From an uncultured archaeon (GTDB lineage: Archaea; Iainarchaeota; Iainarchaeia; Iainarchaeales; JAGVWC01): DNA of 39,156 nucleotides. The position numbers and the translations under genes were made by a program. Shown here piece by piece: positions 1,884-29,359 of the stretch; within the stretch, counting starts at the first letter, position 1, and the number at the start of each line of letters is the position of its first letter. The stretch covers positions 1 through 39,156 of the forward strand of contig CAYOAS010000001.1 in NCBI GenBank assembly GCA_964402015.1, in the 5' to 3' direction. The notes below the pieces were generated by a model. It searched no databases and was not told the DNA's origin. It was given only the letters and a program-made list of their open reading frames with translations.

Positions 1884-2635
1884 AACTGACTGTTCTTGGT
1901 TCCGGAATGCCATTGTCAGGCGCAGAAAGAGCGTGTTCCGGTTACTTGATAGAATCACAGGGCAATTTTGTTGTATTGGATTTAGGGTCTGGAACATTGC
2001 AGAACATGAAAAAAATAGTTCTGCCAAGCAAGCCTAGCGCATTGTTTTTCTCGCATTTTTCTCACGCAGACCATGTTGCAGATTTGCCGGCTTTTTTTCA
2101 TGCAAGAAAAATGATTTGCACGGAAATGCCGAACGAGGCAAGGCAGCTGAACATGTTTGGGCATAATGGCTTTGAATCATTCGTAAAAAAAGTTTTGGAA
2201 TTGTTTCCAGGGTTTGCGAAACTGCCTTTCCCTGTCTGGGTTGAAGAAATGCAGTATTCTTCAAAAAAAATTTTTGGTTTTACAGTAAAATCAAAACCAG
2301 TAAAGCATGCAGAGGATTCAATTGGTTTCAGGATTGAGGCAGAAGGAAAGGTTATTGCATACAGCGGTGACACAGAGTATTGCGATGAAATAATTGATTT
2401 GGGGCAGAACGCTGATTTGCTGGTTTTGGAATGCAGTTTTCCCGGAACAGAAAAGCACGAAGGGCACTTGAATGCAAGCGAATGCGGCGAGATTGCAAAA
2501 AAAGCAAATGCAAGGCGCTTGTTGCTGACACATTTTTATCCCGAAGCAGAAAAAGAGGATGTGAAGGCGCAGGCTGCAAAAGCGTTTGATGGAGAAATAA
2601 TTCTGGCAAAAGATTTGCTGGAGGTAGAGATATAA
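1880..2635 (+). CDS. MBL-fold metallo-hydrolase (RNase Z-like beta-lactamase superfamily)
   Basis: HFSHADH (HxHxDH) zinc motif. ATGA start/stop overlap with the upstream gene. Confidence 0.7.
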   Translation: MKLTVLGSGMPLSGAERACSGYLIESQGNFVVLDLGSGTLQNMKKIVLPSKPSALFFSHFSHADHVADLPAFFHARKMICTEMPNEARQLNMFGHNGFESFVKKVLELFPGFAKLPFPVWVEEMQYSSKKIFGFTVKSKPVKHAEDSIGFRIEAEGKVIAYSGDTEYCDEIIDLGQNADLLVLECSFPGTEKHEGHLNASECGEIAKKANARRLLLTHFYPEAEKEDVKAQAAKAFDGEIILAKDLLEVEI

Positions 2636-2682: not shown

Positions 2683-2708
2683 GCAAAAGATTTGCTGACT
2701 GTGGAAGT

Positions 2709-4538: not shown

Positions 4539-4928
4539 TCAAGGAATGCATTCAAAAGAATCCACTTTTATCAGTATCCAGTCAAGCAGTTCAATAAAAT
4601 CTGTTCCGATTGGTTGCACACCGCGCTTTACTATTTCTCCCCGGATTTTGGCATGGTTGGAATCACAGTTTATTTGCTCTTTCAAAATTAGAGGAATTCC
4701 GGTTGTTTGCTTTCCAAAAGGCTCATTAAGCAAATATCCTTTTTGTTCGCCTTCCCTGAATATCTGTTGTGGGTAAGGCATTGCCCCGCCAACATAGCCG
4801 GAAAGCTCTATTTTTTCGCCCTGTTGCTTTTCAAAGACACTGCGCCAGTCTGTTCCGGCATAGCCTCCGAGGCAACCAGAAAGCAAAATTATTGAAATTA
4901 TTGTAAACCCCACAAAATTGCCTTTCAT
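4539..4928 (-). CDS. Hypothetical lipoprotein / secreted protein
   Basis: 129 aa. N-terminal hydrophobic segment ending LLSGC (lipobox-like). ATG confirmed at 4928. Confidence 0.5.
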   Translation of the reverse strand: MKGNFVGFTIISIILLSGCLGGYAGTDWRSVFEKQQGEKIELSGYVGGAMPYPQQIFREGEQKGYLLNEPFGKQTTGIPLILKEQINCDSNHAKIRGEIVKRGVQPIGTDFIELLDWILIKVDSFECIP

Positions 4929-4981: not shown

Positions 4982-5042
4982 CGGCTTTACTAAAGCCGGC
5001 AAATATGCAACCTTTTCGCTGTTGCTCAAAGGTTGGATTTGC
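4982..5042 (-). repeat. Two-hairpin intergenic element, copy 2
   Basis: Stem CGGCTTTA/TAAAGCCG (4982-4998), linker GCAAATATG, stem CAACCTTT/AAAGGTTG (5008-5035). Outer pairing is GCAAAT/ATTTGC (4999-5004 with 5037-5042). Confidence 0.55.
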
Positions 5043-5046
5043 CTAA

Positions 5047-5104
5047 TGGCGTTGTAAGCCGGCAAATATGCAACCTCCTCATTTTGTTTGGAGGTTGGAT
5101 TTGC
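5047..5104 (-). repeat. Two-hairpin intergenic element, copy 3 (tandem to copy 2)
   Basis: Repeats AAGCCGGCAAATATGCAACC and GGTTGGATTTGC from copy 2. The main stem is CAACCTCC/GGAGGTTG (5071-5097). The second hairpin is degenerate (GGC/GCC with a 7-nt loop). Confidence 0.55.
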
Positions 5105-5346
5105 TTGGCAGCAAAAAACAACTCTAAAACCCAACTTGCAGTTGGACTTCGCCTGTTGGCGTTATTTTGACTGTTGTACTATTGGTTTTCTGCCTTTGTA
5201 CCAAAACCGCTTTATAAAGCGCAAGCGAAGGTAATTATAGCGGTTAAATACCCCATGAATCACCCCGGCAGCAGTTGTCCGCCAGGACAATTGTTTGCCC
5301 TTTTTCTTTTTTTCGTTCAAAAATGTTTCTTAGGAGGCTTTGTTTT

Positions 5347-6828: not shown

Positions 6829-6889
6829 CGAGGAAAATTTAAAAATCCAGTCCAAAAAAAGTATATGTATATATCCCCCTTTTTCGAAT

Positions 6890-6929
6890 AGCCCTGAGGA
6901 GATTCGAATTCTTGTCATAGGGTTTCTTA
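6890..6929 (-). pseudogene. Degenerate copy of tRNA-Gln exon 2 (3' half), possible att-site remnant
   Basis: Hand alignment to 7631-7670 gives 29 of 40 identities, covering acceptor 3' strand, T-loop, anticodon-stem 3' strand and the first intron bases. No matching 5' half is nearby and the T-stem is broken. Confidence 0.45.
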
Positions 6930-7011
6930 AAAGTGGCTTGTGGTGGATGTTATTGTTTTTGAAAATAACGTTTATATTGGGTTTGTTGCAAAATGTTATT
7001 GTGGTTTTTTT

Positions 7012-7215
7012 ATGCAGGTTCAGATTAGCAGGGAATTGGATAAGAAAATAAAGCAGGCTTCAAAAGCACTTGGCTTTGAAGACAAGAAAATCGTTGAAAG
7101 GGCATTATTGTTTTATTTGGACGCAGTCAAGGAACAATTGGCATTGAAACGGGAATTTAAGGAATGGGATAAATTAAGCGATGAAGCCTTGGTTGAATTT
7201 GAAAAGGAATTGTGA
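7012..7215 (+). CDS. Antitoxin of MazEF-type pair (ribbon-helix-helix-like)
   Basis: 67-aa charged protein. Its stop overlaps the MazF start by 4 nt (7212-7215). ATG at 7012. Confidence 0.55.
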   Translation: MQVQISRELDKKIKQASKALGFEDKKIVERALLFYLDAVKEQLALKREFKEWDKLSDEALVEFEKEL

Positions 7216-7541
7216 TGCAAAAAGGCGAAGTGTGGAACGTTGAAATTCCCGCCACAAACGGTTATGAGCAAATTGGTAGCAGACCCGCAATTGTGTTGTC
7301 TAATGGTGAAGCTGGAATTGTTGTAATCGTGTCGTTCACTTCAAAGATGCAGTCCTTGAAATATCGGTATACTGTTGAGATAATTGCATCAAAGCAAAAC
7401 GGGCTGAAAGCCACCTCTGTAGCACTGGTTTTTCAGTTAAGGGCAATTGACAGCAAAAGGCTGAAAGAAAAAATTGGCACGCTTGATAACAAAACAATGG
7501 AAGAAATAGAAAAACAAACCAAACTGTTGTTAAGAATCTAA
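7212..7541 (+). CDS. mazF: PemK/MazF family endoribonuclease toxin
   Basis: 109 aa. N-terminus KGEVWNVEIPATNGYEQIGSRPAIVLS matches the MazF/PemK consensus. Confidence 0.8.
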   Translation: MMQKGEVWNVEIPATNGYEQIGSRPAIVLSNGEAGIVVIVSFTSKMQSLKYRYTVEIIASKQNGLKATSVALVFQLRAIDSKRLKEKIGTLDNKTMEEIEKQTKLLLRI

Positions 7542-7629
7542 TTCCGCGGCGCAACCGCTTGCCCAACATTTTTGGCTTTTGCAAAAACAATATATTAACC
7601 CACTGTCGTATACATGGAAAAAAACAAGT

Positions 7630-7866
7630 TAGCCCCAGAGAGATTCGAACTCTCGTCCCAGGGTCTCTTCTCCAAAGCATCCAAAGTTTTTCTTTTTCTG
7701 GGGAATTTATCCCCTGTTTTTCTTTTGGAAAGCCCGTAGACTTTTCTCTTTGCGGGATTAAAGTCCCGCGGTTTTTCTTTTGGAAAGACCGTAGACTTTT
7801 CTTTTTCGCAAAAAGAAAAGGCTTGGATTCAAAGCCCTGTATCCTTGGCCACTAGACTATGGGGCT
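7630..7866 (-). tRNA. tRNA-Gln (anticodon UUG) with a 164-nt intron at the canonical 37/38 position
   Basis: Exon 1 is 7829-7866 (AGCCCCA acceptor, D-arm, CAGGG stem, loop CUUUGA). Exon 2 is 7630-7664 (A, CCCTG, GGAC, GAGAG-TTCGAAT-CTCTC, TGGGGCT, A). The intron is 7665-7828. Confidence 0.85.
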
Positions 7867-7916
7867 GCACGCAATCGCCGTGCACACGAAATATGTCGAA
7901 CCATCTGCGATGGTTC
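7867..7916 (-). repeat. Two-hairpin intergenic element, diverged copy abutting the tRNA-Gln 5' end
   Basis: Stem GCACG/CGTGC (7867-7883), linker containing AAATATG (7889-7895), perfect 8-bp stem GAACCATC/GATGGTTC (7898-7916). Same order and linker core as copies 2 and 3. Confidence 0.35.
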
Positions 7917-8023
7917 ATTAATATTCTTGAAAAGCGGGTTTTAAAAGCATTGTTTGTCAGAAATAATTATTGCCAGGGAAAGGCTTTTTAGGCTTTTTTT
8001 AGGGTTTTTTTATAGCTTATTTT

Positions 8024-12161: not shown

Positions 12162-14036
12162 TTAGTTTTTTGATATTTCTTCTTTCAGAATCCTGCTTAT
12201 CTGCTTGCCGGAAGCCTTGCCCCGAAGCTCTTTCATCAGGTCGCCCATTAAAGCAGACATTGCGCCAAGCTTTTTTTCCGAAACAATTTTTTTGTTTGTT
12301 TCAATCACGCGCCTTGCTATGCCGCGGATTTCTTCTTCGCCCGCACTGCCGGCACAGCTTGCAGAAACAATTTCTTCAAGCCTTTTTTGCGGTTCCTTGC
12401 TCCATGCTCCAAGCAACTGCAAAACTATTTCTTTTGGAATCTCTTTTTTCTTTACTGCAAAGACAATCTTTTCAATCATTTCGTCGGAAATTTTTTCCAC
12501 TGCAACATTGCCGCGCTTTAACTGCACTAGCCCTTCAAGCAACAGCCATGCTGCAAATGTTGCATCTGCTCCTTTTGTGGCAAGCGATTCGAAAAAAATC
12601 GCGTTGTTGTCAAGCTTCATTTTTTCAGCAAGTTGTTCTGACAAGCAGAATTTTTTAATGTACAATTGCTTTCTTTGCTCCGGCCAGAGTGGCAGGTTAG
12701 CGGACAATTTTTTCATCAGTTTTGCATCAACAATGATTTCCTTCAAATCTGTTTCCGGATACATTCGTGCTGCTCCTGGCAATGGACGCTGGTATTCAGT
12801 ATTGCAGTTTTCCAAGGCACCCCTTGTTTCTTCCGGCACTCCTTTCAAAGCCTGCTTGCATCTCTCAACAATTACATTCAGTGCCTCTACTGCCTTTTGC
12901 TTTTCCGCACAAACCAAAACAAAGGCATCATTTGATTCCAACCCAAGCAATGTTGCAACACTGTTTTTTTCCTCTTCAGAAACACCATAAGCCGGCAATT
13001 CGTCGCTATGTAATATTCCCTGCAATCCAGTGCGCGCTTTTACATTAGAAGCAAGTTCTGTCCCGAAGCGCCTGTCTGGCTGTATTTCTTTCCCAACAAT
13101 TCCTGCAAAGCCCTTCAATTTTATGCCAAAAACCCTCTTGCCGCGCAAAAACTTGCACTCAGTATTTTCAAAGAAACTGCTTGCATCTGTTGGATCAAAA
13201 AACAAGTCCTTTTCGGAAATTCCGCGTTCCAGCAATTCTTTTTTTATTTGCACAAGCGAAAACTGCCTTTGCATTTCCCTTCGCACAAAATCGTCAATGA
13301 ACTCCAAATCCTGCACTCCTTTTATTTCAACTCGCGCTCCGTCCCTGATTGAAATGTTTATGTCCTGCCTGATTGTGCCTAAGCCGCGTTTTGCCTTGCC
13401 GGTAATCCTGAACATTGCGCCGATTGCAAGCGCTGCATTTTTTACCTCTTCGGGCGAAAACAATTCCGGCGCAGTAGCCAATTCAATCAATGGAATTCCC
13501 AGCCTGTCAAGCCTGTAAATTATTTCTTTTTCGCTTTTGCCCATTGGCCGTGCTGCGTCTTCTTCTACTGCAATTGTTTGAATGCCGATTTCCTTTCCTC
13601 CAATGTCCAGCCGCCCGCCAACGCCAACAAGCGCAGTGCGCTGGAAGCCAGAAGTATTGGAACCGTCAATCACTGCTTTTCTCATTACGACAATTTCATC
13701 CAACACTCTCGCTTTTGCAAGAATGCAGACAGTCAAAACAACTTGCAATGCACCAGGGTTAAGCGGCATCGGCGGTTCTTCATCCAATTCAATAAGGCAA
13801 TTCACTTCTTTGAATGCCTCGTAAACATACGACAAATTCTTGTTGAATGCCTCAAGCGCCGCGGCATCAAACTCGCCAAGCTCTGAAGCAACCGGCCGCA
13901 ATTTCCTCGCAATAATAAAATCCGGTTTTTCCTCTTTCAAAATGCCCGGGCAACGGCAAAACAATTTGCCGGTATCCAATTGCTGGTGGCACTCCAAACC
14001 AGCTTTCAAACCAATTGCCTTAAAATCAAAATCCAT
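12162..14036 (-). CDS. gatE: Glu-tRNA(Gln) amidotransferase subunit E (archaeal GatE)
   Basis: 624 aa. N-terminus GLKAGLECHQQLDTGKLFCRCP, an inserted AspRS-like domain and a GatB-like tail. Confidence 0.9.
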   Translation of the reverse strand: MDFDFKAIGLKAGLECHQQLDTGKLFCRCPGILKEEKPDFIIARKLRPVASELGEFDAAALEAFNKNLSYVYEAFKEVNCLIELDEEPPMPLNPGALQVVLTVCILAKARVLDEIVVMRKAVIDGSNTSGFQRTALVGVGGRLDIGGKEIGIQTIAVEEDAARPMGKSEKEIIYRLDRLGIPLIELATAPELFSPEEVKNAALAIGAMFRITGKAKRGLGTIRQDINISIRDGARVEIKGVQDLEFIDDFVRREMQRQFSLVQIKKELLERGISEKDLFFDPTDASSFFENTECKFLRGKRVFGIKLKGFAGIVGKEIQPDRRFGTELASNVKARTGLQGILHSDELPAYGVSEEEKNSVATLLGLESNDAFVLVCAEKQKAVEALNVIVERCKQALKGVPEETRGALENCNTEYQRPLPGAARMYPETDLKEIIVDAKLMKKLSANLPLWPEQRKQLYIKKFCLSEQLAEKMKLDNNAIFFESLATKGADATFAAWLLLEGLVQLKRGNVAVEKISDEMIEKIVFAVKKKEIPKEIVLQLLGAWSKEPQKRLEEIVSASCAGSAGEEEIRGIARRVIETNKKIVSEKKLGAMSALMGDLMKELRGKASGKQISRILKEEISKN

Positions 14037-18387: not shown

Positions 18388-19362
18388 TCAGTTTATTTTT
18401 GTCAATTCTTTGAGTTTTTTTATTAGTCTTAAGTCTTCGGTTTTCTCGTCCCATTGGGCAATGATTTCGTGTATTTCTTTTTTTAATTGCTTCTCTGAAA
18501 GTTTTGCGGGTTCTTTACAGGCAACATTTTTTGATAAAAGGAAGCCGTAAAGTTCTTTTAGCGAGTTTTTTTGTCTGAATTCAATGACTTTAACGCCAAT
18601 CTTTCTTGCTTCTTCAATCATCATGTCTGTTAATTTGTCGATGAGGAATAAATCTACTTTTCTTGCCAATGCTTCGTCTCCAATTTCTGGGTTTCCTATG
18701 CCCAACAATTTCAGCTCTATTGTCAGGGGCTTTTTATCCTTGGAAAAAATAATGGCGTCTATTTCTCTGTTTCCAACCAATCCTTTTCTTTTCATGTCAT
18801 CAAATAAAAGAACATAATCTTCTTCGTTGATTTTTAAAAGTTTGAAGATTGTGAATAGCAATGTTTTTTCTGTTTGTTTTCCGACTTCGCTCCAAGCACC
18901 GCCTTGAATAGTCAATCTCATTGCAGAAATTGTGTTTACAAAAATAATGCTTTCAATTTCATCAAGCTCAATTGTTTCTCCTTTATTTCTAATGCTGACG
19001 CGTAATTGATATTCGGTTTTTTTAAAATTCTTAAGAAGGAGCTGCAACGCGGCAATGTTCTTTTTCCCTATATCTAAACAAATTTCTTTTGTGGAAATTC
19101 CGCCAGTCATATTTTTTACTGTTTTGTCGTTTATGCCGCCAAACCAGAGCAGTTTGAATTTGTTCTCTTTGCCCGGCTTGTTTTTCGTGTCTTCTAAGAG
19201 TTTGTCTATCCAGTTGCCGCCGTTCTTTTTATAGTTAAAAATGTCTGCCGTGAGTTCTTGTGCTTTTTCTATGAATCGCTCATTAATCGTGGCTAGAACA
19301 AAAGTCCTGTAATCTTTGCCGCTTAAAATGGAAAAAATAATTTCTGACATCAGTTGTTTCAT
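18388..19362 (-). CDS. Putative type II restriction endonuclease (PD-(D/E)XK)
   Basis: 324 aa. ATGA overlap with the upstream methyltransferase. Candidate catalytic motif IDAII...TIELK (D-x14-E-x-K). Confidence 0.5.
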   Translation of the reverse strand: MKQLMSEIIFSILSGKDYRTFVLATINERFIEKAQELTADIFNYKKNGGNWIDKLLEDTKNKPGKENKFKLLWFGGINDKTVKNMTGGISTKEICLDIGKKNIAALQLLLKNFKKTEYQLRVSIRNKGETIELDEIESIIFVNTISAMRLTIQGGAWSEVGKQTEKTLLFTIFKLLKINEEDYVLLFDDMKRKGLVGNREIDAIIFSKDKKPLTIELKLLGIGNPEIGDEALARKVDLFLIDKLTDMMIEEARKIGVKVIEFRQKNSLKELYGFLLSKNVACKEPAKLSEKQLKKEIHEIIAQWDEKTEDLRLIKKLKELTKIN

Positions 19363-20738
19363 TTTTTCGCCTTTATTTTTATGTCCTCAGGAATTGTTTT
19401 AATTGCATCTGTTATTCTTTCGATGTTTTTCAATAATCTTTCTTTTGTTGGGGTTTTTCCCCTTGTGGATGATCCCTGCTTTTTTTGTATCTGTTCTTTG
19501 AAAGAAGCCATCTGTTGTTTTACTTTTTGTGCTATGACCTCATCATTGCTTGCGTTAGCGCTGCAATCTGAAATTTTTCTTAATACTACAATATATTCAT
19601 CATCTATTCGCCCAACATCCGCGTTTGTGTATTTTCTTGTTTTGTCAATATTCCTAAAATACGTCTTCACATGTTCAAATCCGATTTCTTTGGCAAAAGC
19701 AATAAAGTATTTGTGGCTTTCTATCAGTTCGTATTCTAAACTTGAATTGCCTACAACAATAGCGCAGGTTTTTCCAGTTTTTAAGACCCTGTTCATTTCA
19801 ATCATTGACCTTAACATATCGCCCAAATATTCTGAAAGAAGCCTGAAGCGGTTGGTTATGAAATGTGAGTGTCCTCCGATTTCGTGCTTTCTAAATAACT
19901 CAAAGTCCATGCCCAGCCAAAGCATGTTGTACATATGCGTTCTATAATAGTCTAAAGCATTGACGTATGGGGGGGATGTAACAATAAGGTCAACGGTGTT
20001 GTTATCTACTTCCAGTTTTCTTGCATCTCCCTGAATAAGTTTTACATCTGGTTGCAGAAGAACGATTTTTGAAATTTCCAATATTTCTTTTTTCATTGAT
20101 TGAGTTTTTCTAATAAACGAGTTTTCAATGTCTGGCCCATTGCCATTTTCTACTAATCCCCATATTGTTGATGAAAGGGCAACCTGGCAAAAGTCAAACA
20201 AGTCATATTTTTTTTCTTCTTTTAGTTCCAATACCATTTCTTTTATTGCCTCTAACTTTACAATAGTTTCTTTATCAAATAGCTTGCTTATTGTGCGGTT
20301 TGGCAAATCATTTACTCTGTCTTCAATTCTTTTATGATCCAAATCCAAGTATTTTTTTGTTCTTGAAATTTTTTTATCTAAATATTCGAAATCACCAGGT
20401 GAAATTAAAGTTGTTTTGACTTTGCTTATTAGCACTGCCAATGGATTGAAATCGTTTCCTATGGCGTTTCTATTATTTAGAAAGCACTCTACAATCGTTG
20501 TTCCGCAACCGCAAAACGGGTCAAGAACAATATCTCCTTTTTTTGTGAGTAGGTTGATGAATGTTAATGGTATTTGTGGTATGAATCGTGCGGGATAAGA
20601 ATGAAATTTATGCGATAAATATTGTGTGGTTGCCTCTTTGAAATCCCAATTTATCTTGTCCAATTTTTCTATTAAAGAATCGCTTTTTTCTGTTTTGTTG
20701 ATTGCTAATTGTACCATGCTGCTAACTTGTCCGTTCAT
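19359..20738 (-). CDS. N4/N6 DNA methyltransferase
   Basis: DPFCGCGTT (motif I, aa 73-81) preceded by HSYPARFIPQIP. TSPPY (motif IV, aa 254-258). Confidence 0.8.
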   Translation of the reverse strand: MNGQVSSMVQLAINKTEKSDSLIEKLDKINWDFKEATTQYLSHKFHSYPARFIPQIPLTFINLLTKKGDIVLDPFCGCGTTIVECFLNNRNAIGNDFNPLAVLISKVKTTLISPGDFEYLDKKISRTKKYLDLDHKRIEDRVNDLPNRTISKLFDKETIVKLEAIKEMVLELKEEKKYDLFDFCQVALSSTIWGLVENGNGPDIENSFIRKTQSMKKEILEISKIVLLQPDVKLIQGDARKLEVDNNTVDLIVTSPPYVNALDYYRTHMYNMLWLGMDFELFRKHEIGGHSHFITNRFRLLSEYLGDMLRSMIEMNRVLKTGKTCAIVVGNSSLEYELIESHKYFIAFAKEIGFEHVKTYFRNIDKTRKYTNADVGRIDDEYIVVLRKISDCSANASNDEVIAQKVKQQMASFKEQIQKKQGSSTRGKTPTKERLLKNIERITDAIKTIPEDIKIKAKK

Positions 20739-24584: not shown

Positions 24585-26459
24585 TTATTTCTGCGCTTGC
24601 TCTTCGCTTGCAGCGCTCGTGGCAATCTTTCTCTGGTTTTCAAACATTTGAATTATTTCTTTTACTGTTGTTGCCTGTTCCGGTTTTTTGTCCGAGCGCA
24701 TTTGTATCATCCGCGGAAAGCGCAGTGCAAATCCCTCTTCGCTGTCCTTTTTTTTGCCAGCGGTGTGGATTGGGCTTTTTGTTATTTCGTCCGCGCGCAC
24801 TTCAATGACATGTTTTGGTTCGCACCAAAAATCAGGCTCAATCTCTGAATCAACGCGCGCCGGCTTGCTTGAACGCTTGATTTTGCTGAGCATTTCTTCC
24901 AAATCTGTCAGGGTTTGCTCGCTCATTCCGGTTCCAATCTTTGCAATGCTCTTGAACATGTCTTCTCCCTCGTCGTAAACTGCAGTCAACAATCCTCCCA
25001 AGCCGAATTCTGTTCTTTTTCCCCTGCCCTTGAAATAACCGATTATTACTGCGTCGATGGAATCAGACAATTCGCCCTTGTACGAGCGCTTTAATTTTAT
25101 CCACGCAAATTTTCTCGCTCCTGCAATGTATCTTGCATTCAGGTCTTTTGCGATTATTCCTTCCAATCCTTTCGAAACATTGTCTTCGAAAAACTTGTTC
25201 ATTTCTTTTGCAGAATCCGTAACAATGCTTTTTGTTGCTTCTATTACCGCGCCTTTTTTGATAATTTTTTCCAGCGCTTGCCGGCGCTCTTTGAAAGGCA
25301 ATGGCATAATGTTTTTTCCGTTCAGGTACATCAAATCGAAGGCAAAAAGCTTCAGGGGATATTCTGCGGCTTTTTCTTTTATGTCATATTTTCTCTTGCG
25401 CTGTATTGTCACCTGAAAAGGAAAATATTCCCCTGTTGTTTCATTGACTGCAAGGGCTTCGCCTTCAAAGATTGCTGTTTTCGCGTCAATCTGTTTTTTT
25501 ACTGCGTCAATTATTTCCGGAAACATGCTTGTCATTTTTTCCATGTTCCTGCTGAAAATCTCAACTTTTTCATTATTCTTATGAATCGCCAAACGCAACC
25601 CATCGTATTTTGCTTCTACAGCACACTTTCCCAATTTTTCAATTATTTCTTCCGCGCTTGGCAATCGTTCTGCAAGAGTCGGCCTGATTGGAATGCCGGG
25701 CATTATTTCAATTTTTTCCAGTCCCTTCAATCCGTTTTCTTTCAGCGTTTGTGCAATCGCGCCCAAATCAGAATGAATATTGTATTTTTCCTCAATTATT
25801 TCCCGCAGTCGAATTTTCACGCGCAAATCAAATTCTTTTTTTCGCTTCTCCGGGTTTTTTTCTTTCAGATTTTCCTCGATTTCTTTGGTTATTTTTGGAT
25901 TCTTTTCCACAAACTCTTTTGAATAAAGGATTGCAAGCGAATCCATTATTGTCGGGTCGCCAATGCCCAGGCGCAGGTTTTCCATTACTATCCTTACAAC
26001 AAACCTTGCCTCCAAGGGATTGGCGCTGTTCAATAATTCCGCCAACAACCGGATTTTTGAATCCTGGCTTCCGGCGCCGGAAACATTTGCAATCTTTTGA
26101 AGATTATCAAATACTTTTTTCAGCGTCAATTTTTCCGAAAACAATGCCAATTGTTTTTTCTTTTTCAACAATTCCTCTGCAACAAAACCCAAATCTCCCT
26201 TTTGCTTGTACAAGCGCTCGACTTCCCCTTTTGTATATCCTGCCGCGCTAGCGATTGCTTCTTGCACAAAGCTTTCCCCCATTCCGATATTCACGCCCTC
26301 AAACTGTGGCGCCAACAATCCCTGTGCCAGAAAAACAAACCTTGCTGTTTCATCCGCGCGCATTTGCCTGAAGAATTCCACCAAATAATCCGCCATATCC
26401 AGCCTCGAACTGGCTTTTTCCACGCGCTCGAACAATTCAGCAATCAAAGCAAAATCCAT
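24585..26459 (-). CDS. lig: ATP-dependent DNA ligase
   Basis: Motif I AVEAKYDGLR (KxDG adenylation lysine), EGIIAK and a C-terminal OB-fold region. ATG at 26459 (MDFALIAELFERVE). Confidence 0.9.
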   Translation of the reverse strand: MDFALIAELFERVEKASSRLDMADYLVEFFRQMRADETARFVFLAQGLLAPQFEGVNIGMGESFVQEAIASAAGYTKGEVERLYKQKGDLGFVAEELLKKKKQLALFSEKLTLKKVFDNLQKIANVSGAGSQDSKIRLLAELLNSANPLEARFVVRIVMENLRLGIGDPTIMDSLAILYSKEFVEKNPKITKEIEENLKEKNPEKRKKEFDLRVKIRLREIIEEKYNIHSDLGAIAQTLKENGLKGLEKIEIMPGIPIRPTLAERLPSAEEIIEKLGKCAVEAKYDGLRLAIHKNNEKVEIFSRNMEKMTSMFPEIIDAVKKQIDAKTAIFEGEALAVNETTGEYFPFQVTIQRKRKYDIKEKAAEYPLKLFAFDLMYLNGKNIMPLPFKERRQALEKIIKKGAVIEATKSIVTDSAKEMNKFFEDNVSKGLEGIIAKDLNARYIAGARKFAWIKLKRSYKGELSDSIDAVIIGYFKGRGKRTEFGLGGLLTAVYDEGEDMFKSIAKIGTGMSEQTLTDLEEMLSKIKRSSKPARVDSEIEPDFWCEPKHVIEVRADEITKSPIHTAGKKKDSEEGFALRFPRMIQMRSDKKPEQATTVKEIIQMFENQRKIATSAASEEQAQK

Positions 26460-26556
26460 AAGAACCAAACAATTATTGCACTTTTTGCATTAAAAAAACA
26501 ATAGTCTGCGCGCCAAACAAGCAAGCTTTAAAACAAAAATAAGCTTTTTTTTGTGC

Positions 26557-26964
26557 CTATTGCAAGATAGTATTTGGCTCTTTTCTCGCAATTTCCAATC
26601 CGTCAAAGTGCTTGTCAAAGCTTATTATTGCCTTGCAGTTGAATTGTTTTGCAACAAAATATTGTATTGCATCATCAAAACCCAAGCCGGTTTTTTCCAT
26701 CAAGTCAATTATTTTCAATTCGTCGGATATTACAGTGTGGTAGATAAAAAGGTTTTCCATTGATGCAAGCTCTTTCAAAAACTTTTTCAAGGCAGTGCCT
26801 TTGCCGTTTGCCAAAAGAACAAGCTCAATAGAATGAATTGCGAAAGAACTTGTCAATCCAACCATGTTCCCATTGGCAACTTTTTTTAGCAATGAAACGC
26901 ATTCCGCGCACTTTTGCCTGCCCAAAAGCACTTCCAAGAAAATATTAGTGTCAATCAGATACAT
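26557..26964 (-). CDS. vapC: PIN domain toxin (VapC)
   Basis: MYLIDTNIFLEVL N-terminus and distal acidic residues (FDDAIQ, SFDKHF). The ATG at 26964 is 1 nt after the antitoxin stop. Confidence 0.75.
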   Translation of the reverse strand: MYLIDTNIFLEVLLGRQKCAECVSLLKKVANGNMVGLTSSFAIHSIELVLLANGKGTALKKFLKELASMENLFIYHTVISDELKIIDLMEKTGLGFDDAIQYFVAKQFNCKAIISFDKHFDGLEIARKEPNTILQ

Positions 26965-26965
26965 T

Positions 26966-27226
26966 TTAATCCGCTTTTTCAAGCCACTTTTTTAGCGCGC
27001 TATGCTGCAAAGAAACAGAATCGCATTTAATGTCTTTTGCAAGCCCCACAAGGCTTTCAATACTGCCTTTTCTTTTTCCCCTTGTTTCAATCCTGTTCAT
27101 CCAATCATCGATTGCAACTGTTGCAGCCTTGCTGATTGCACCTTTCCTAAAACCAAAACTCTTCATTGCAAGCTGCCTGAATCTTGCAACAGCCCCTTCT
27201 TTCAACTGTATCCTCAATGTTTCCAA
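26966..27226 (-). CDS. VapB-like antitoxin
   Basis: 86-aa ORF immediately upstream of the PIN gene. TTG start. GCTAT(A/T)T direct repeats lie in its upstream region. Confidence 0.5.
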   Translation of the reverse strand: METLRIQLKEGAVARFRQLAMKSFGFRKGAISKAATVAIDDWMNRIETRGKRKGSIESLVGLAKDIKCDSVSLQHSALKKWLEKAD

Positions 27227-27421
27227 TCAAACCACCATATAGCAATATAGCCAAATAGCCTTAAAAATGCCATCGCCAAAAAAACACAAAACCACCCTGT
27301 GCCGGAAAATGACAATCTATTCTCTTGCGGGCAAGCTGTTTCTTGAATAGTTAGCAATTTAAGCCTTCTATTCAACAAATTTTTCAACAAGTTTATGCGG
27401 TTTTAACAACTATGCCGCCAG

Positions 27422-27481
27422 GCATATTCAACCTCTGAGCAAAGCGAAGAGGTTGCATTTTCGCCAGCCTTAGTAAGGCTG
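27422..27481 (+). repeat. Two-hairpin intergenic element, copy 4, upstream of tRNA-Pro
   Basis: Stem CAACCTCT/AGAGGTTG (27429-27455), linker CATTTTCGC, stem CAGCCTTA/TAAGGCTG (27465-27481). About 82 percent identical by hand alignment to the reverse complement of 4982-5042. Confidence 0.55.
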
Positions 27482-27496
27482 CTTTAGTAAAACCGA

Positions 27497-27648
27497 GGGG
27501 ATGTAGTATAGCTTGGTCCAGTATTCTCGCTTTGGGCCGCAGCTTTTTTCGGGGAAAAAACCTGGGAAAAAAAGGTTTTTTGCTGTTGCAAAAAACAATT
27601 GCCTGTGCAAAAAAGCGAGTGACCCCGGTTCAAATCCGGGCATCCCCA
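27497..27648 (+). tRNA. tRNA-Pro (anticodon UGG) with a 77-nt intron at 37/38
   Basis: GGGGATG/CATCCCC acceptor, CTCGC/GCGAG anticodon stem, loop TT-TGG-G. Intron 27537-27613. T-arm CCCGG-TTCAAAT-CCGGG. Confidence 0.85.
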
Positions 27649-27663
27649 ATTCAAGCATTTTTT

Positions 27664-27756
27664 GGGGCTGTAGTCTAGCCTGGTAGGATTCTAGCATGGG
27701 GAACCTTTACAGTATCCAGAATGCTAGCGACCCGAGTTCAAATCTTGGCAGCCCCA
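27664..27756 (+). tRNA. tRNA-Pro (anticodon GGG) with a roughly 20-nt intron
   Basis: GGGGCTG/CAGCCCC acceptor and CTAGC/GCTAG anticodon stem enclosing 27 nt (7-nt loop plus 20-nt intron, about 27702-27721). T-arm CCGAG-TTCAAAT-CTTGG. Position 32 would be A, so the anticodon call is less certain. Confidence 0.75.
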
Positions 27757-27800
27757 TTTTTCAATTAATTTATTAAACTGGTTCGGCGCAAGGTGATTAA

Positions 27801-29297
27801 ATGGCAGAGAAAAAAACAGTTGTTCAGGAAAAAAAACCGGAAAAAATCACTTTTAATATTGACAAGAAGGCAAATTTTAGCGACTGGTTCACTGAAATAA
27901 TCCAGAAAGCAGAGCTTGCTGATTTGCGCTATAACATCAAGGGCTTTCTCGTTTTTCAGCCTTGGTCTGTTTTTGCAATGGAAGCAATGTATGATTATTA
28001 CGAGCGCGCGCTGCAGAAGCGCGGGCACAAGCCTTATTGGTATCCTGCGTTGATTCCTGAAACCAATTTTCATTTGGAAAAAGAGCATGTTGAGGGTTTT
28101 GCGCCTGATGTTTTTTGGGTTACTGAATATGGCAATGGGCAAAAGCTTGAGGAAAAATTTGCTTTGCGCCCGACAAGCGAAACAGCAATGTACCAGATGT
28201 TTTCAATCTGGATTCGCTCTTACAACGATTTGCCTTTCAAGACATATCAGCGCTGCCAGGTCTGGCGCCACGAAACAAATGCAACAAGGCCTTTTTTGAG
28301 GAGCAGGGAATTTTATTGGATTGAAGCCCATGATGCTTTTGCCACAGAGCAGGACGCAATAAAACAGGTTCATGAGGATATGAATACTGCTGAAGAGGTT
28401 TTGCACGGGATTTTTGGCGTGCCATTCATTTTTTTTGAAAGGCCGCAGTGGGACAAGTTTGCTGGCGCGGAAAAAACCTTTGCGGCAGACACAATAACTC
28501 CTGACGGAAAAATAATCCAGCAGCCTTCAACACACTTGTTAGGGCAAAATTTCAGCAAGCCGTTCAATGTAAAATTCACTGACAAGGACGGGCAAGAAAA
28601 ATATTGTTACCTTACCTGTTACGGTCCAGCAATCAGCAGGATTTTTGCTTCGGTCATTGCAACGCACGGAGACAACAAGGGATTGCGCTTTCCATTCGAA
28701 ATCGCGCCAGTACAAATAATTATTGTGCCAATCGCGGCTGACAAAAACAAAAAGGTTTTGGACAAATCAAAAGAGCTGAAAGAAACGCTTTTTGGGGCAG
28801 GCTACCGTGCAGACGCTGATTTTAGCGAAAAAAGGCCCGGGGAAAAATTTTATTTTTGGGAAATGAAAGGCGTTCCGTTGCGCATTGAACTCGGGCCAAA
28901 AGAGCTTTCTGAAAAAAAGCTTATTGTTTACCGCAGGGACTCCGGAAAAAAAACAGCAATCAAGGAAAAAGAGCTATTGCAATTTGTGGAAAAAACCGGA
29001 AAAGAAATTTCCAGCGCACTAAAGGCGGAAGCCGACAAAAAGTTCCAGAACATTATTGAAAACGCTGATTCAATTGAAGAAACAAAAAAAGCCATTGAGT
29101 CAAAAGGCATAGCCCGCGTGAATTTTTGCAGCATTGGAATGGATGCAATAAAATGCGCAGAGGCAGTGGAAAAAGATTTGCAGGCAACAGTCAGGGGCAA
29201 GCGCGTTGGCATCGAAGAAAAGCCTTTTGGCAGCAAAAAATGCGTTGTCTGCGGCAAGGAAGCGAAAGTTGTTGCGTATATTGCAAAGCAATATTGA
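27801..29297 (+). CDS. proS: Prolyl-tRNA synthetase, archaeal/eukaryotic type
   Basis: 498 aa with class II motifs (FALRPTSE, RCQVWRHE). The C-terminal zinc-binding extension CVVCGKEAKVVAYIAKQY ends in Tyr. Confidence 0.9.
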   Translation: MAEKKTVVQEKKPEKITFNIDKKANFSDWFTEIIQKAELADLRYNIKGFLVFQPWSVFAMEAMYDYYERALQKRGHKPYWYPALIPETNFHLEKEHVEGFAPDVFWVTEYGNGQKLEEKFALRPTSETAMYQMFSIWIRSYNDLPFKTYQRCQVWRHETNATRPFLRSREFYWIEAHDAFATEQDAIKQVHEDMNTAEEVLHGIFGVPFIFFERPQWDKFAGAEKTFAADTITPDGKIIQQPSTHLLGQNFSKPFNVKFTDKDGQEKYCYLTCYGPAISRIFASVIATHGDNKGLRFPFEIAPVQIIIVPIAADKNKKVLDKSKELKETLFGAGYRADADFSEKRPGEKFYFWEMKGVPLRIELGPKELSEKKLIVYRRDSGKKTAIKEKELLQFVEKTGKEISSALKAEADKKFQNIIENADSIEETKKAIESKGIARVNFCSIGMDAIKCAEAVEKDLQATVRGKRVGIEEKPFGSKKCVVCGKEAKVVAYIAKQY

Positions 29298-29359
29298 GCC
29301 GCCTTAAGGCGGTGCAAATGCGCAACCTTCCAGTTGAGCATGCCTAACGGCAAAGGTTA
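29298..29359 (-). repeat. Two-hairpin intergenic element, copy 5
   Basis: 14-bp palindrome CCGCCTTAAGGCGG (29299-29312), linker TGCAAATGCG, stem AACCTT/AAGGTT (29324-29358) with a 23-nt loop. Same order as copies 2 and 3. Confidence 0.4.

Follow-up and report, generated by a model that had tools for sequence, protein, structure and literature searches.

A small multihairpin repeat of DPANN archaea, mobile or formerly mobile, found beside and within tRNA genes

Copies of the module in an Iainarchaeota window

The window analyzed here, a stretch of DNA of 39,156 nt, encodes archaeal proteins, namely, both GatB (plus part of GatA) and GatD/GatE, an ATP-dependent DNA ligase, and an archaeal-type ProRS, along with intron-containing tRNAs. 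The best named relatives of its GatB belong to “Candidatus Diapherotrites” (Iainarchaeota), and the nearest relative, which is 79% identical, lies on the 1.19-Mb metagenome contig Ga0209514_10000002. The intergenic DNA of the window carries copies of a module of 45 to 75 nt, of which an earlier note had listed six and a possible seventh.

The module is composed, in order, of a variable hairpin (hp1), a T-rich spacer of 1 to 9 nt, the motif TTCGCS, and a conserved hairpin (hp2). Hairpin hp1 has 6 to 12 bp and a loop such as GAA, GAAA, or GTGA; at least 10 copies instead show tandem G.A in an apex of the form GAGC-N3-5-GCGA. Hairpin hp2 reads S-AGCCTT-AG(N1-2)-AAGGCT-S', with S and S' covarying as C..G or G..C and an apex of the type YTTA-R-N-AAR; the variants GGCTTT..AAAGCC and CCGCC..GGCGG occur in the lineage of the window. 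In that lineage there is often also an upstream hairpin of 4 bp with a GNNA loop (hp0; TGCC-GNNA-GGCA). The conserved unit is thus TTCGCS plus hp2 and not hp1, a point that the earlier note had missed, as it had hp0. Copies found by the model alone have other hp2 apexes (TTAATAA, TTAACAA, and TTAA), and the loci were retrieved by an exact core, so the invariance of that core is partly a product of the search.

The window was searched, with filters off, with a covariance model (R1) built from five copies outside the window, all from other organisms. MAFFT alignments left hp1 structurally unaligned, and the five copies that seed R1 were therefore chosen for their equal geometry. The model recovers five of the six listed copies, three strongly and two weakly, whereas the sixth (7867 to 7916) shares the architecture alone and the possible seventh (7925 to 7970) is without support. 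A strict pattern, CAACCTNN..NNAGGTTGCATNTTNG, has three matches in the window and none in 100 shuffles.

The first copy (c1; 2635 to 2681, + strand; R1 E = 1.1e-7) consists of hp1 GGGATTGC-GAA-GCAATCGC, ATG, TTCGCC, and hp2 AGCCTTAGCCAAGGCT(G) and is flanked by an MBL-fold gene (stop codon at 2633 to 2635) on one side and gatB (ATG at 2709) on the other. The second and third lie in tandem on the − strand. Copy c2 (4982 to 5050; E = 1.7e-6 for 4982 to 5038; also delimited by alignment A7 and by its fold) has hp0 GCC-ATTA-GGC, hp1 CAACCTTT-GAGCAACAGCGA-AAAGGTTG, CATA, TTTGCC, and hp2 GGCTTTAGTAAAGCC, and it ends 53 nt upstream of a gene (ATG at 4928) whose product, of 129 amino acids (aa), has a putative signal peptide. 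Copy c3 (5047 to 5113; E = 0.079 for 5047 to 5100; alignment A7) is 77% identical to c2, with hp0 TGCTGCCAAGCA, hp1 CAACCTCC..GGAGGTTG, and TTTGCC; its hp2 is truncated after GGCTTA, at the start of c2.

Copy c5 (27412 to 27493, +; E = 1.5e-8 for 27426 to 27481; fold z = −5.4) has hp0 ATGCCGCCAGGCAT, hp1 CAACCTCT-GAGCAAAGCGA-AGAGGTTG, CATT, TTCGCC, and hp2 AGCCTTAGTAAGGCT, followed by a second weak hairpin, GCTTTAGTAAAAC. This last hairpin is separated by 3 to 4 nt from position +1 of tRNA-Leu(TAA) at 27497, which, with tRNA-Pro(GGG), forms the intron-containing pair directly 3' of the copy (27497 to 27757, +; Rfam and ARAGORN with introns allowed). The diverged copy c6 (29299 to 29359, −; E = 0.028 for 29299 to 29339) lies antisense between proS (stop codon at 29297) and an epimerase gene and comprises TGCC-GTTA-GGCA, a CAAC..GTTG hairpin, GCGCATTTGCA, and hp2 CCGCCTTAAGGCGG; it has local similarity (AAGGTTGCGCATTYGC) to positions 13619 to 13660 of locus L009. 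The diverged copy of the earlier note (c4; 7867 to 7917, −) gives no R1 match at E < 10 and, judged from its sequence, is an architectural analogue: a hairpin GAACCATC-GCA-GATGGTTC, GACATA, TTCGTG, and a hairpin TGCACG-GCGATTG-CGTGCA, the final base of which is position +1 (7866) of tRNA-Gln (c[7630,7866]).

The hand alignment of the reverse complement of 4982 to 5042 with 27422 to 27481, on which the family had been proposed, proved exact at 50 of 61 identical columns (random 60-mers of the window average 47%, with a maximum of 59%), and the three compensatory pairs read from it are present. Every window copy is indeed intergenic, and the family has, as described, no open reading frame (ORF), terminal inverted repeats, or CRISPR-like spacing.

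Distribution and structural conservation

The exact core, TTCGCSAGCCTTAG(N1-2)AAGGCT, was found on 46 metagenome contigs, for which chance would provide a handful by a rough estimate, and nearly all of these cores follow a hairpin on which the query had placed no requirement. The GC content of these contigs ranges from 30 to 59%. The window and L029 (30% GC) belong to Iainarchaeota/Diapherotrites, and L031 (59% GC) belongs to Altiarchaeota, which thus contribute at least one contig. A model search of 407 kb yielded 62 copies, 49 of them distinct, with 5 in the 39-kb window and at least 9 on one 1.19-Mb contig. The viral contigs scanned for the core gave no match. In Rfam 15, tRNAs alone reached the gathering threshold and the best weak matches (E of 0.018 to 10) were to unrelated families, so that the module matches no RNA family described there, in keeping with the earlier note, and our literature searches found no description of the element.

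Both stems show extensive covariation. Among the 49 distinct copies, 94.8% of cells are paired, compared with 74% in shuffles, and 139 cells carry double-sided changes, compared with 40, figures that are inflated by an alignment fitted to the model, although the hairpins were also found independently of it. Double changes occur in all eight pairs of hp1 and in five of the seven pairs of hp2, and sliding the partner by one column lowers pairing to 50 to 55%. The covariation of the two stems over 49 copies backs the selection on hairpins that had been proposed from the window alone. Furthermore, c1 and its orthologue in L052 are identical at 25 of 26 positions outside the searched core, the single change falling in the hp1 loop, while the adjoining coding DNA is ~75% identical and the duplicated flank ~60%; the estimated P value for such slow change is ~0.005 at 25% divergence. 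The relatives in these comparisons were ascertained via the exact core, and the gene calls in their loci are crude ORF picks.

Several descriptors and candidate identities were discarded. A window-specific hp1 pattern had seven single matches in genome contigs, all in unrelated bacteria and with ~18 expected by chance, and was uninformative; a loose hairpin descriptor (174 matches versus 67 in shuffles) was useless. A tRNA-like cloverleaf closure is seen in c5 and L019 and is absent from the other copies. The hammerhead core motif is incomplete. A C/D box small RNA (sRNA) or K-turn was rejected since there are no boxes and the GAGC..GCGA apex has tandem G.A but no bulge.

Insertion, gain, and loss

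At the MBL/gatB junction, the two genes overlap in L009 (TGATGG) and c1 is absent; the window has 74 extra nt, consisting of c1 and a second copy, of ~33 nt, of the end of the MBL gene and the start of gatB. An exact 15-nt repeat (GCAAAAGATTTGCTG) marks this target duplication, with the left copy at 2606 to 2620 (+) and the right copy at 2683 to 2697 (+), now within the gatB 5' region. In degenerate form, the left duplication reaches ~33 nt, to the old gatB ATG at 2635 to 2637. At a second site, in front of a 100-aa gene, a copy is present in L009 and missing from the window.

Direct repeats of at least 15 nt flank 5 of the 49 distinct copies and 1 of 196 random sites. In L028 and L016, the flanking repeats are second copies of the end of a coding gene, over 33 and 15 nt. 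Overall, target duplications measure ~10, 15, 17, 33, and 33 bp, and most copies have none. No conserved sequence is common to the flanks of the module. The copies of the window, L021, and L046 share the sequence of hp0 and hp1, so copies have multiplied within that lineage. These data show that new sites have received copies of the module within lineages and that copies are gained and lost between relatives, and the family is a structured one that is mobile or formerly mobile. The 74-nt insertion, the second presence/absence site, and the flanking duplications thus lend direct support to the REP/MITE-like mobile hairpin, one of three options (with a structured RNA and a portable promoter) raised in the earlier note. 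Among the ~30 window proteins scanned, there is no candidate mobilizing gene and no Y1/RAYT or other transposase.

Rearranged copies were also found. In L048 (844 to 1045) and L044 (240 to 400), the module and its flanks are tandemly duplicated (a 109-nt unit, 100% identical, in L048 and a 67-nt unit in L044). One copy in L048 has a hairpin-rich insert of 53 nt in the hp2 apex (AGCCT|TAGTAAGGCT), and window copy c3 is truncated at the same point.

One further copy is nested in a 299-bp MITE, found at L047 6114 to 6412 (−) and also in L025, L030, L040, L042, L051, L034, and L055, with a 79% version in L015. The MITE copies are 97 to 99% identical with unrelated flanks and have a 15-bp inverted repeat (GGCTCCGGTGAAAAT), a target duplication of 7 to 10 bp, and a long-rod fold (z = −9.1); the one two-hairpin module within is flanked by GAGAGGCAAC/GAGGGACAAC. 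A rod-like RNA of 305 nt, considered as a signal recognition particle (SRP) or RNase P RNA, has no Rfam match and is this MITE, the rod arising from its inverted repeats.

Association with tRNA genes

A link to tRNA genes, which had gone unnoticed in the earlier note, takes two forms. In the first, the last hairpin ends 0 to 4 nt before position +1 of 10 tRNA genes, where ~0.01 such placements would be expected by chance (an estimate from ~41 tRNAs in 407 kb). There is no gap for L056 Asp, L029 Ser, L021 Ser, and L046 Ala, in which the closing G of hp2 is G1 of the tRNA; the gap is 2 to 3 nt in L012, L033, and L050; and in c5, L019, and L021 Gly an additional weak hairpin, TTTAGTAAA, is followed by 2 to 4 nt to +1. 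Unrelated hairpins abut position +1 of other tRNAs, that of the window tRNA-Gln included. An inverted pair of copies occupies both flanks of the L021 tRNA-Ser; a leader-trailer duplex around this tRNA was rejected, its pairing being poorer than that inside each hairpin.

In the second form, the module lies in the 37/38 intron of 10 other tRNAs (Gly, Asp, Val, Arg, and Glu), antisense in all 10; none of the window copies is inside a tRNA. In the intron copies, hp2 starts one nucleotide past A37. In the introns inspected by eye (L014, L043, L049, L036, and L039/L057), its AGC pairs with a GCU adjacent to the 3' splice site, beside a central helix of 4 bp, completing a bulge-helix-bulge (BHB) motif; L020 has GUU at that position. 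The intron copies resemble one another, so they may represent few independent events.

Some features of these tRNAs are recorded here as separate observations. The tRNA-Ser genes of L012 (1267 to 1352) and L033 (1426 to 1509) have the anticodon ACT (A34), where L029 has the usual GCT; the anticodon loop of both, TTACTAA, exactly complements TTAGTAA, a common apex of hp2. The idea of a T-box-like pairing of an hp2 apex AGY with the downstream anticodon was dropped, as tRNA-Ser(GCU/ACU) accounts for 3 of the 10 downstream tRNAs. In L021 (5378 to 5470), the last ~20 nt of tRNA-Gly (TTCGATTCCCGGCAGACGCA) recur ~80 nt downstream, and the repeats flank three hairpins, one with a GAGC..GCGA apex.

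Orientation and strand-specific features

Within co-directional gene pairs, 11 copies are sense and 3 are antisense; c6 and two other copies are antisense to both neighbors. The end of hp2 lies 19 to 53 nt before seven start codons, the genes concerned including gatB and those for ribosomal protein L1, a LeuD-like protein, and a putative lipoprotein of 127 to 129 aa. Of the 40 informative copies, 27 have an hp1 that folds more stably on the given strand and 13 have one that does not (P = 0.014); among the 16 that are tRNA linked, the given strand is favored in 14. The GAA/GNRA-like and GNNA loops are likewise found on the given strand. It is only on that strand that purine-rich loops and a G.A apex are meaningful, and this applies to the antisense intron copies as well. 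With hp1 and hp0 loops that are GNRA/GNNA-like, a recurrent tandem G.A apex, and better folding of the given strand, the structured RNA option stays alive.

Interpretation and alternatives

We tentatively favor, at a little under even confidence, the view that the family is a structured module, insertion competent and strand specific, that is usually cotranscribed as a 5' leader; a conserved factor would bind or cut its core. The module would fold as a single strand, on the strand given here, and TTCGCS plus hp2 may be the recognition site of a conserved trans-acting factor, either a protein or an enzyme. As their positions suggest, most copies would enter the transcript of the tRNA or mRNA that follows, as its 5' leader, and at tRNA genes the foot of the last hairpin would coincide with the 5' processing site. 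Antisense copies would survive as BHB tRNA introns or downstream of genes, and some copies at least may have been taken over by the host and kept by selection. This leader reading fits the placement at gene starts and tRNA +1 positions, the RNA-like loops, the core shared across phyla, and the slow evolution of c1; gain and loss, compensatory pairing, and the same core at 30 to 59% GC in two DPANN phyla are further points for it. However, the antisense intron copies keep the core and the strand-specific G.A apex, which a leader RNA role leaves unexplained; the copies antisense to both neighbors (c6 and two others) also count against it, and the target duplications vary in length (10 to 33 bp), unlike those of a normal transposase.

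Those intron copies are best explained by the main rival reading, somewhat unlikely in our estimation, in which the module is a selfish single-stranded DNA hairpin resembling REP or an IS200/IS605 derivative, and a Y1/HUH-type enzyme reads TTCGCS plus hp2 on one strand and copies the element. Transcription would then be irrelevant, and the module would lie near tRNAs because such sites are chosen as targets or, in compact genomes, tolerated. Optimization of the same strand everywhere, introns included, follows directly, and the gain and loss, the target duplications, the copy nested in a MITE, and the two copies interrupted at one same point of the hp2 apex all fit, as does the resemblance of a conserved flank beside a variable-stem hairpin to GTAG plus REP. 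However, the window proteins scanned contain no Y1 or other transposase, and target duplications are seen here, whereas REP and IS200/IS605 elements make none. An identical core over two phyla and a 30-point range of GC would be unusual for a coevolving selfish element, the orthologous c1 changes more slowly than its flanks, and hp1 is unconserved, unlike the paired LE/RE hairpins of IS200/IS605.

A bolder proposal, to which we assign a rather low probability, is that DPANN archaea conserve the module as a signal connected with tRNA biogenesis. In one version, a mobile hairpin would target the borders of tRNA genes and, by landing antisense in the anticodon loop, would create new BHB introns; in the other, the foot of a leader hairpin would define the tRNA 5' end in lineages that are otherwise nearly leaderless. 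The two versions share that low probability jointly. The first, if true, would offer a direct view of the origin of archaeal tRNA introns.

The portable promoter of the earlier note is disfavored, there being no fixed spacing to tRNA +1. Such an expression cassette, working at the DNA level, would use the T-rich spacer or the AT-rich apex of hp2 as its TATA or proximal promoter element; transcription would start just past hp2, and leaderless tRNAs and short 5' untranslated regions (UTRs) would be expected. Modules near gene starts are almost always sense, hp2 ends at tRNA +1 (G) in four cases, the tRNAs of these genomes that lack a module have TATA-like boxes at about −36 to −24, and c1 could supply gatB with its own promoter. 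Against this, the distance from hp2 to +1 is 0, 2 to 3, or 16 nt, and the segment from −30 to −22 is only weakly AT-rich and in most copies does not resemble a TATA box. A protein-binding palindrome would also not be expected to show compensatory changes in its stems, as both stems do here, and some copies face the 3' ends of genes or lie within introns or a MITE. We consider this cassette improbable. TATA-like boxes are also found 1 to 34 nt upstream of hp1, at positions that are ambiguous in AT-rich DNA; their distances are inconsistent, and hp1 of some copies may therefore escape transcription, a point against the leader reading.

Last, a terminator or insulator in which hp1 and the T-rich tract stop transcription on the given strand is very improbable, although many copies have a GC-rich hairpin followed by TTTT(T)CG or TTCTTTCG, those of c1, L028, and L016 are sense directly after a stop codon, and a sense copy in a tRNA intron would be lethal, in agreement with all intron copies being antisense: many copies lack a run of four or more T, the distances of 0 to 4 nt to 10 tRNAs and 19 to 53 nt to start codons leave no room for a promoter, and the conservation of hp2 would go unexplained.

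Comparison with known systems

Like the bacterial REP/BIME elements associated with RAYT transposases, the module is a short extragenic hairpin element with many copies in both orientations, a short conserved motif beside a hairpin with compensatory stem change, and some copies that are useful to the host. REP elements carry GTAG at the 5' foot of the hairpin, and neither they nor IS200/IS605 elements make target duplications. The module differs in its archaeal hosts, in having two or three hairpins with the last one conserved, in its TTCGCS flank in place of GTAG, in its target duplications, and in a cross-phylum core and precise placement at tRNA borders; no RAYT-like gene is among the ~30 window proteins scanned. 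Similarly, in contrast to the IS200/IS605-derived element PATE, it has an hp1 that is variable and unlike hp2, target duplications, and no fixed flanking tetranucleotide.

As with MITEs, the module is nonautonomous, shows presence and absence between relatives, and has flanking target duplications. Unlike MITEs, it lacks terminal inverted repeats (its ends are two unrelated hairpins), is only 45 to 75 nt long, and has duplications of 10 to 33 bp. DPANN genomes have been reported to be MITE rich (PMC11602168). The regularly spaced identical repeats of a CRISPR array were not found for the module. An integron attC site was considered from the window copies by eye, where ATCCAAC fits RYYYAAC and GTTGCAT does not fit GTTRRRY; hp1 of other lineages is unrelated, there are no arrays, and the window proteins scanned include no integrase.

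Other parallels concern tRNA genes. Fujishima et al., in 2010, reportedly described tRNA intron transposition in Thermoproteales. The likeness to the module lies in a homologous sequence in the 37/38 introns of many tRNAs with a BHB motif; the module differs in occurring in DPANN, in lying also outside tRNAs, in the opposite orientation, and in having intron copies antisense to the best-folding strand. Small RNAs can be matured by tRNA processing, as in the C/D box sRNA of the tRNA-Trp intron and the tRNA-sRNA cotranscripts of Nanoarchaeum. The positions of the module, at the 5' end, position 37/38, and the 3' end, are likewise exactly the three sites at which tRNA-processing enzymes cut, but it has no C/D or H/ACA boxes, and it is not oriented alike at all three. 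Ty3-type elements in yeast are known to integrate where tRNA genes start, and the boundary of the module likewise falls within 0 to 4 nt of tRNA +1; this is an analogy only, since the module has no coding capacity.

Small dispersed hairpin repeats are well studied in bacteria and barely in archaea, and none is known to have been described in DPANN. The present family combines easy recognition, occurrence in two phyla, compensatory evolution, and a tie to three cut sites of pre-tRNAs, an unusual combination that therefore gives a concrete handle on three questions: how archaeal tRNA introns are gained, how tRNA 5' ends are set in reduced genomes, and how selfish or domesticated hairpins persist in genomes of 1 Mb. 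Metagenome-assembled genomes would benefit as well, through better annotation of their tRNA genes and intergenic DNA.

Other elements in the window

The window tRNA-Gln(TTG) (7630 to 7866, −) has an intron of 164 nt and is missed by ARAGORN without the intron mode. The intron contains a 55-nt tandem repeat (7711 to 7751 and 7766 to 7806), the unit of which (GAAAAGTCTACGGNCTTTCCAAAAGAAAAA) is shared with the intron of tRNA-Asp in L056, which belongs to the 1.19-Mb relative; such units make up a second repeat family carried by introns. A 78% copy of the tRNA-Gln 3' end (7630 to 7669) is located at 6889 to 6928, and between the two are a 91-aa ORF (6940 to 7215) and a MazF/PemK toxin gene (7212 to 7541). 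The region from 6889 to 7669 looks like a small toxin-antitoxin cassette integrated at a tRNA 3' end. An ARAGORN tRNA-Ser(TGA) at 26390 to 26480 (−) is unconfirmed by Rfam, overlaps the start of the DNA ligase ORF, and is probably a false positive.

A noncoding block is conserved between the window (5160 to 5300) and L009 (13420 to 13570) and precedes a DUF7471-like ORF and a gene for a double winged-helix regulator. It contains TTGTAC..GTACAA inverted repeats, a palindromic TATA-like GCTTTATAAAGC, and a conserved ACCCCATGAATCACCC..CAATTGTTTGCCC stretch and could be an operator or a small RNA. We also found genes for a CfrBI-like restriction endonuclease and an adjoining DNA methylase (18388 to 20738, −) and a PIN-domain gene (26557 to 26982, −).
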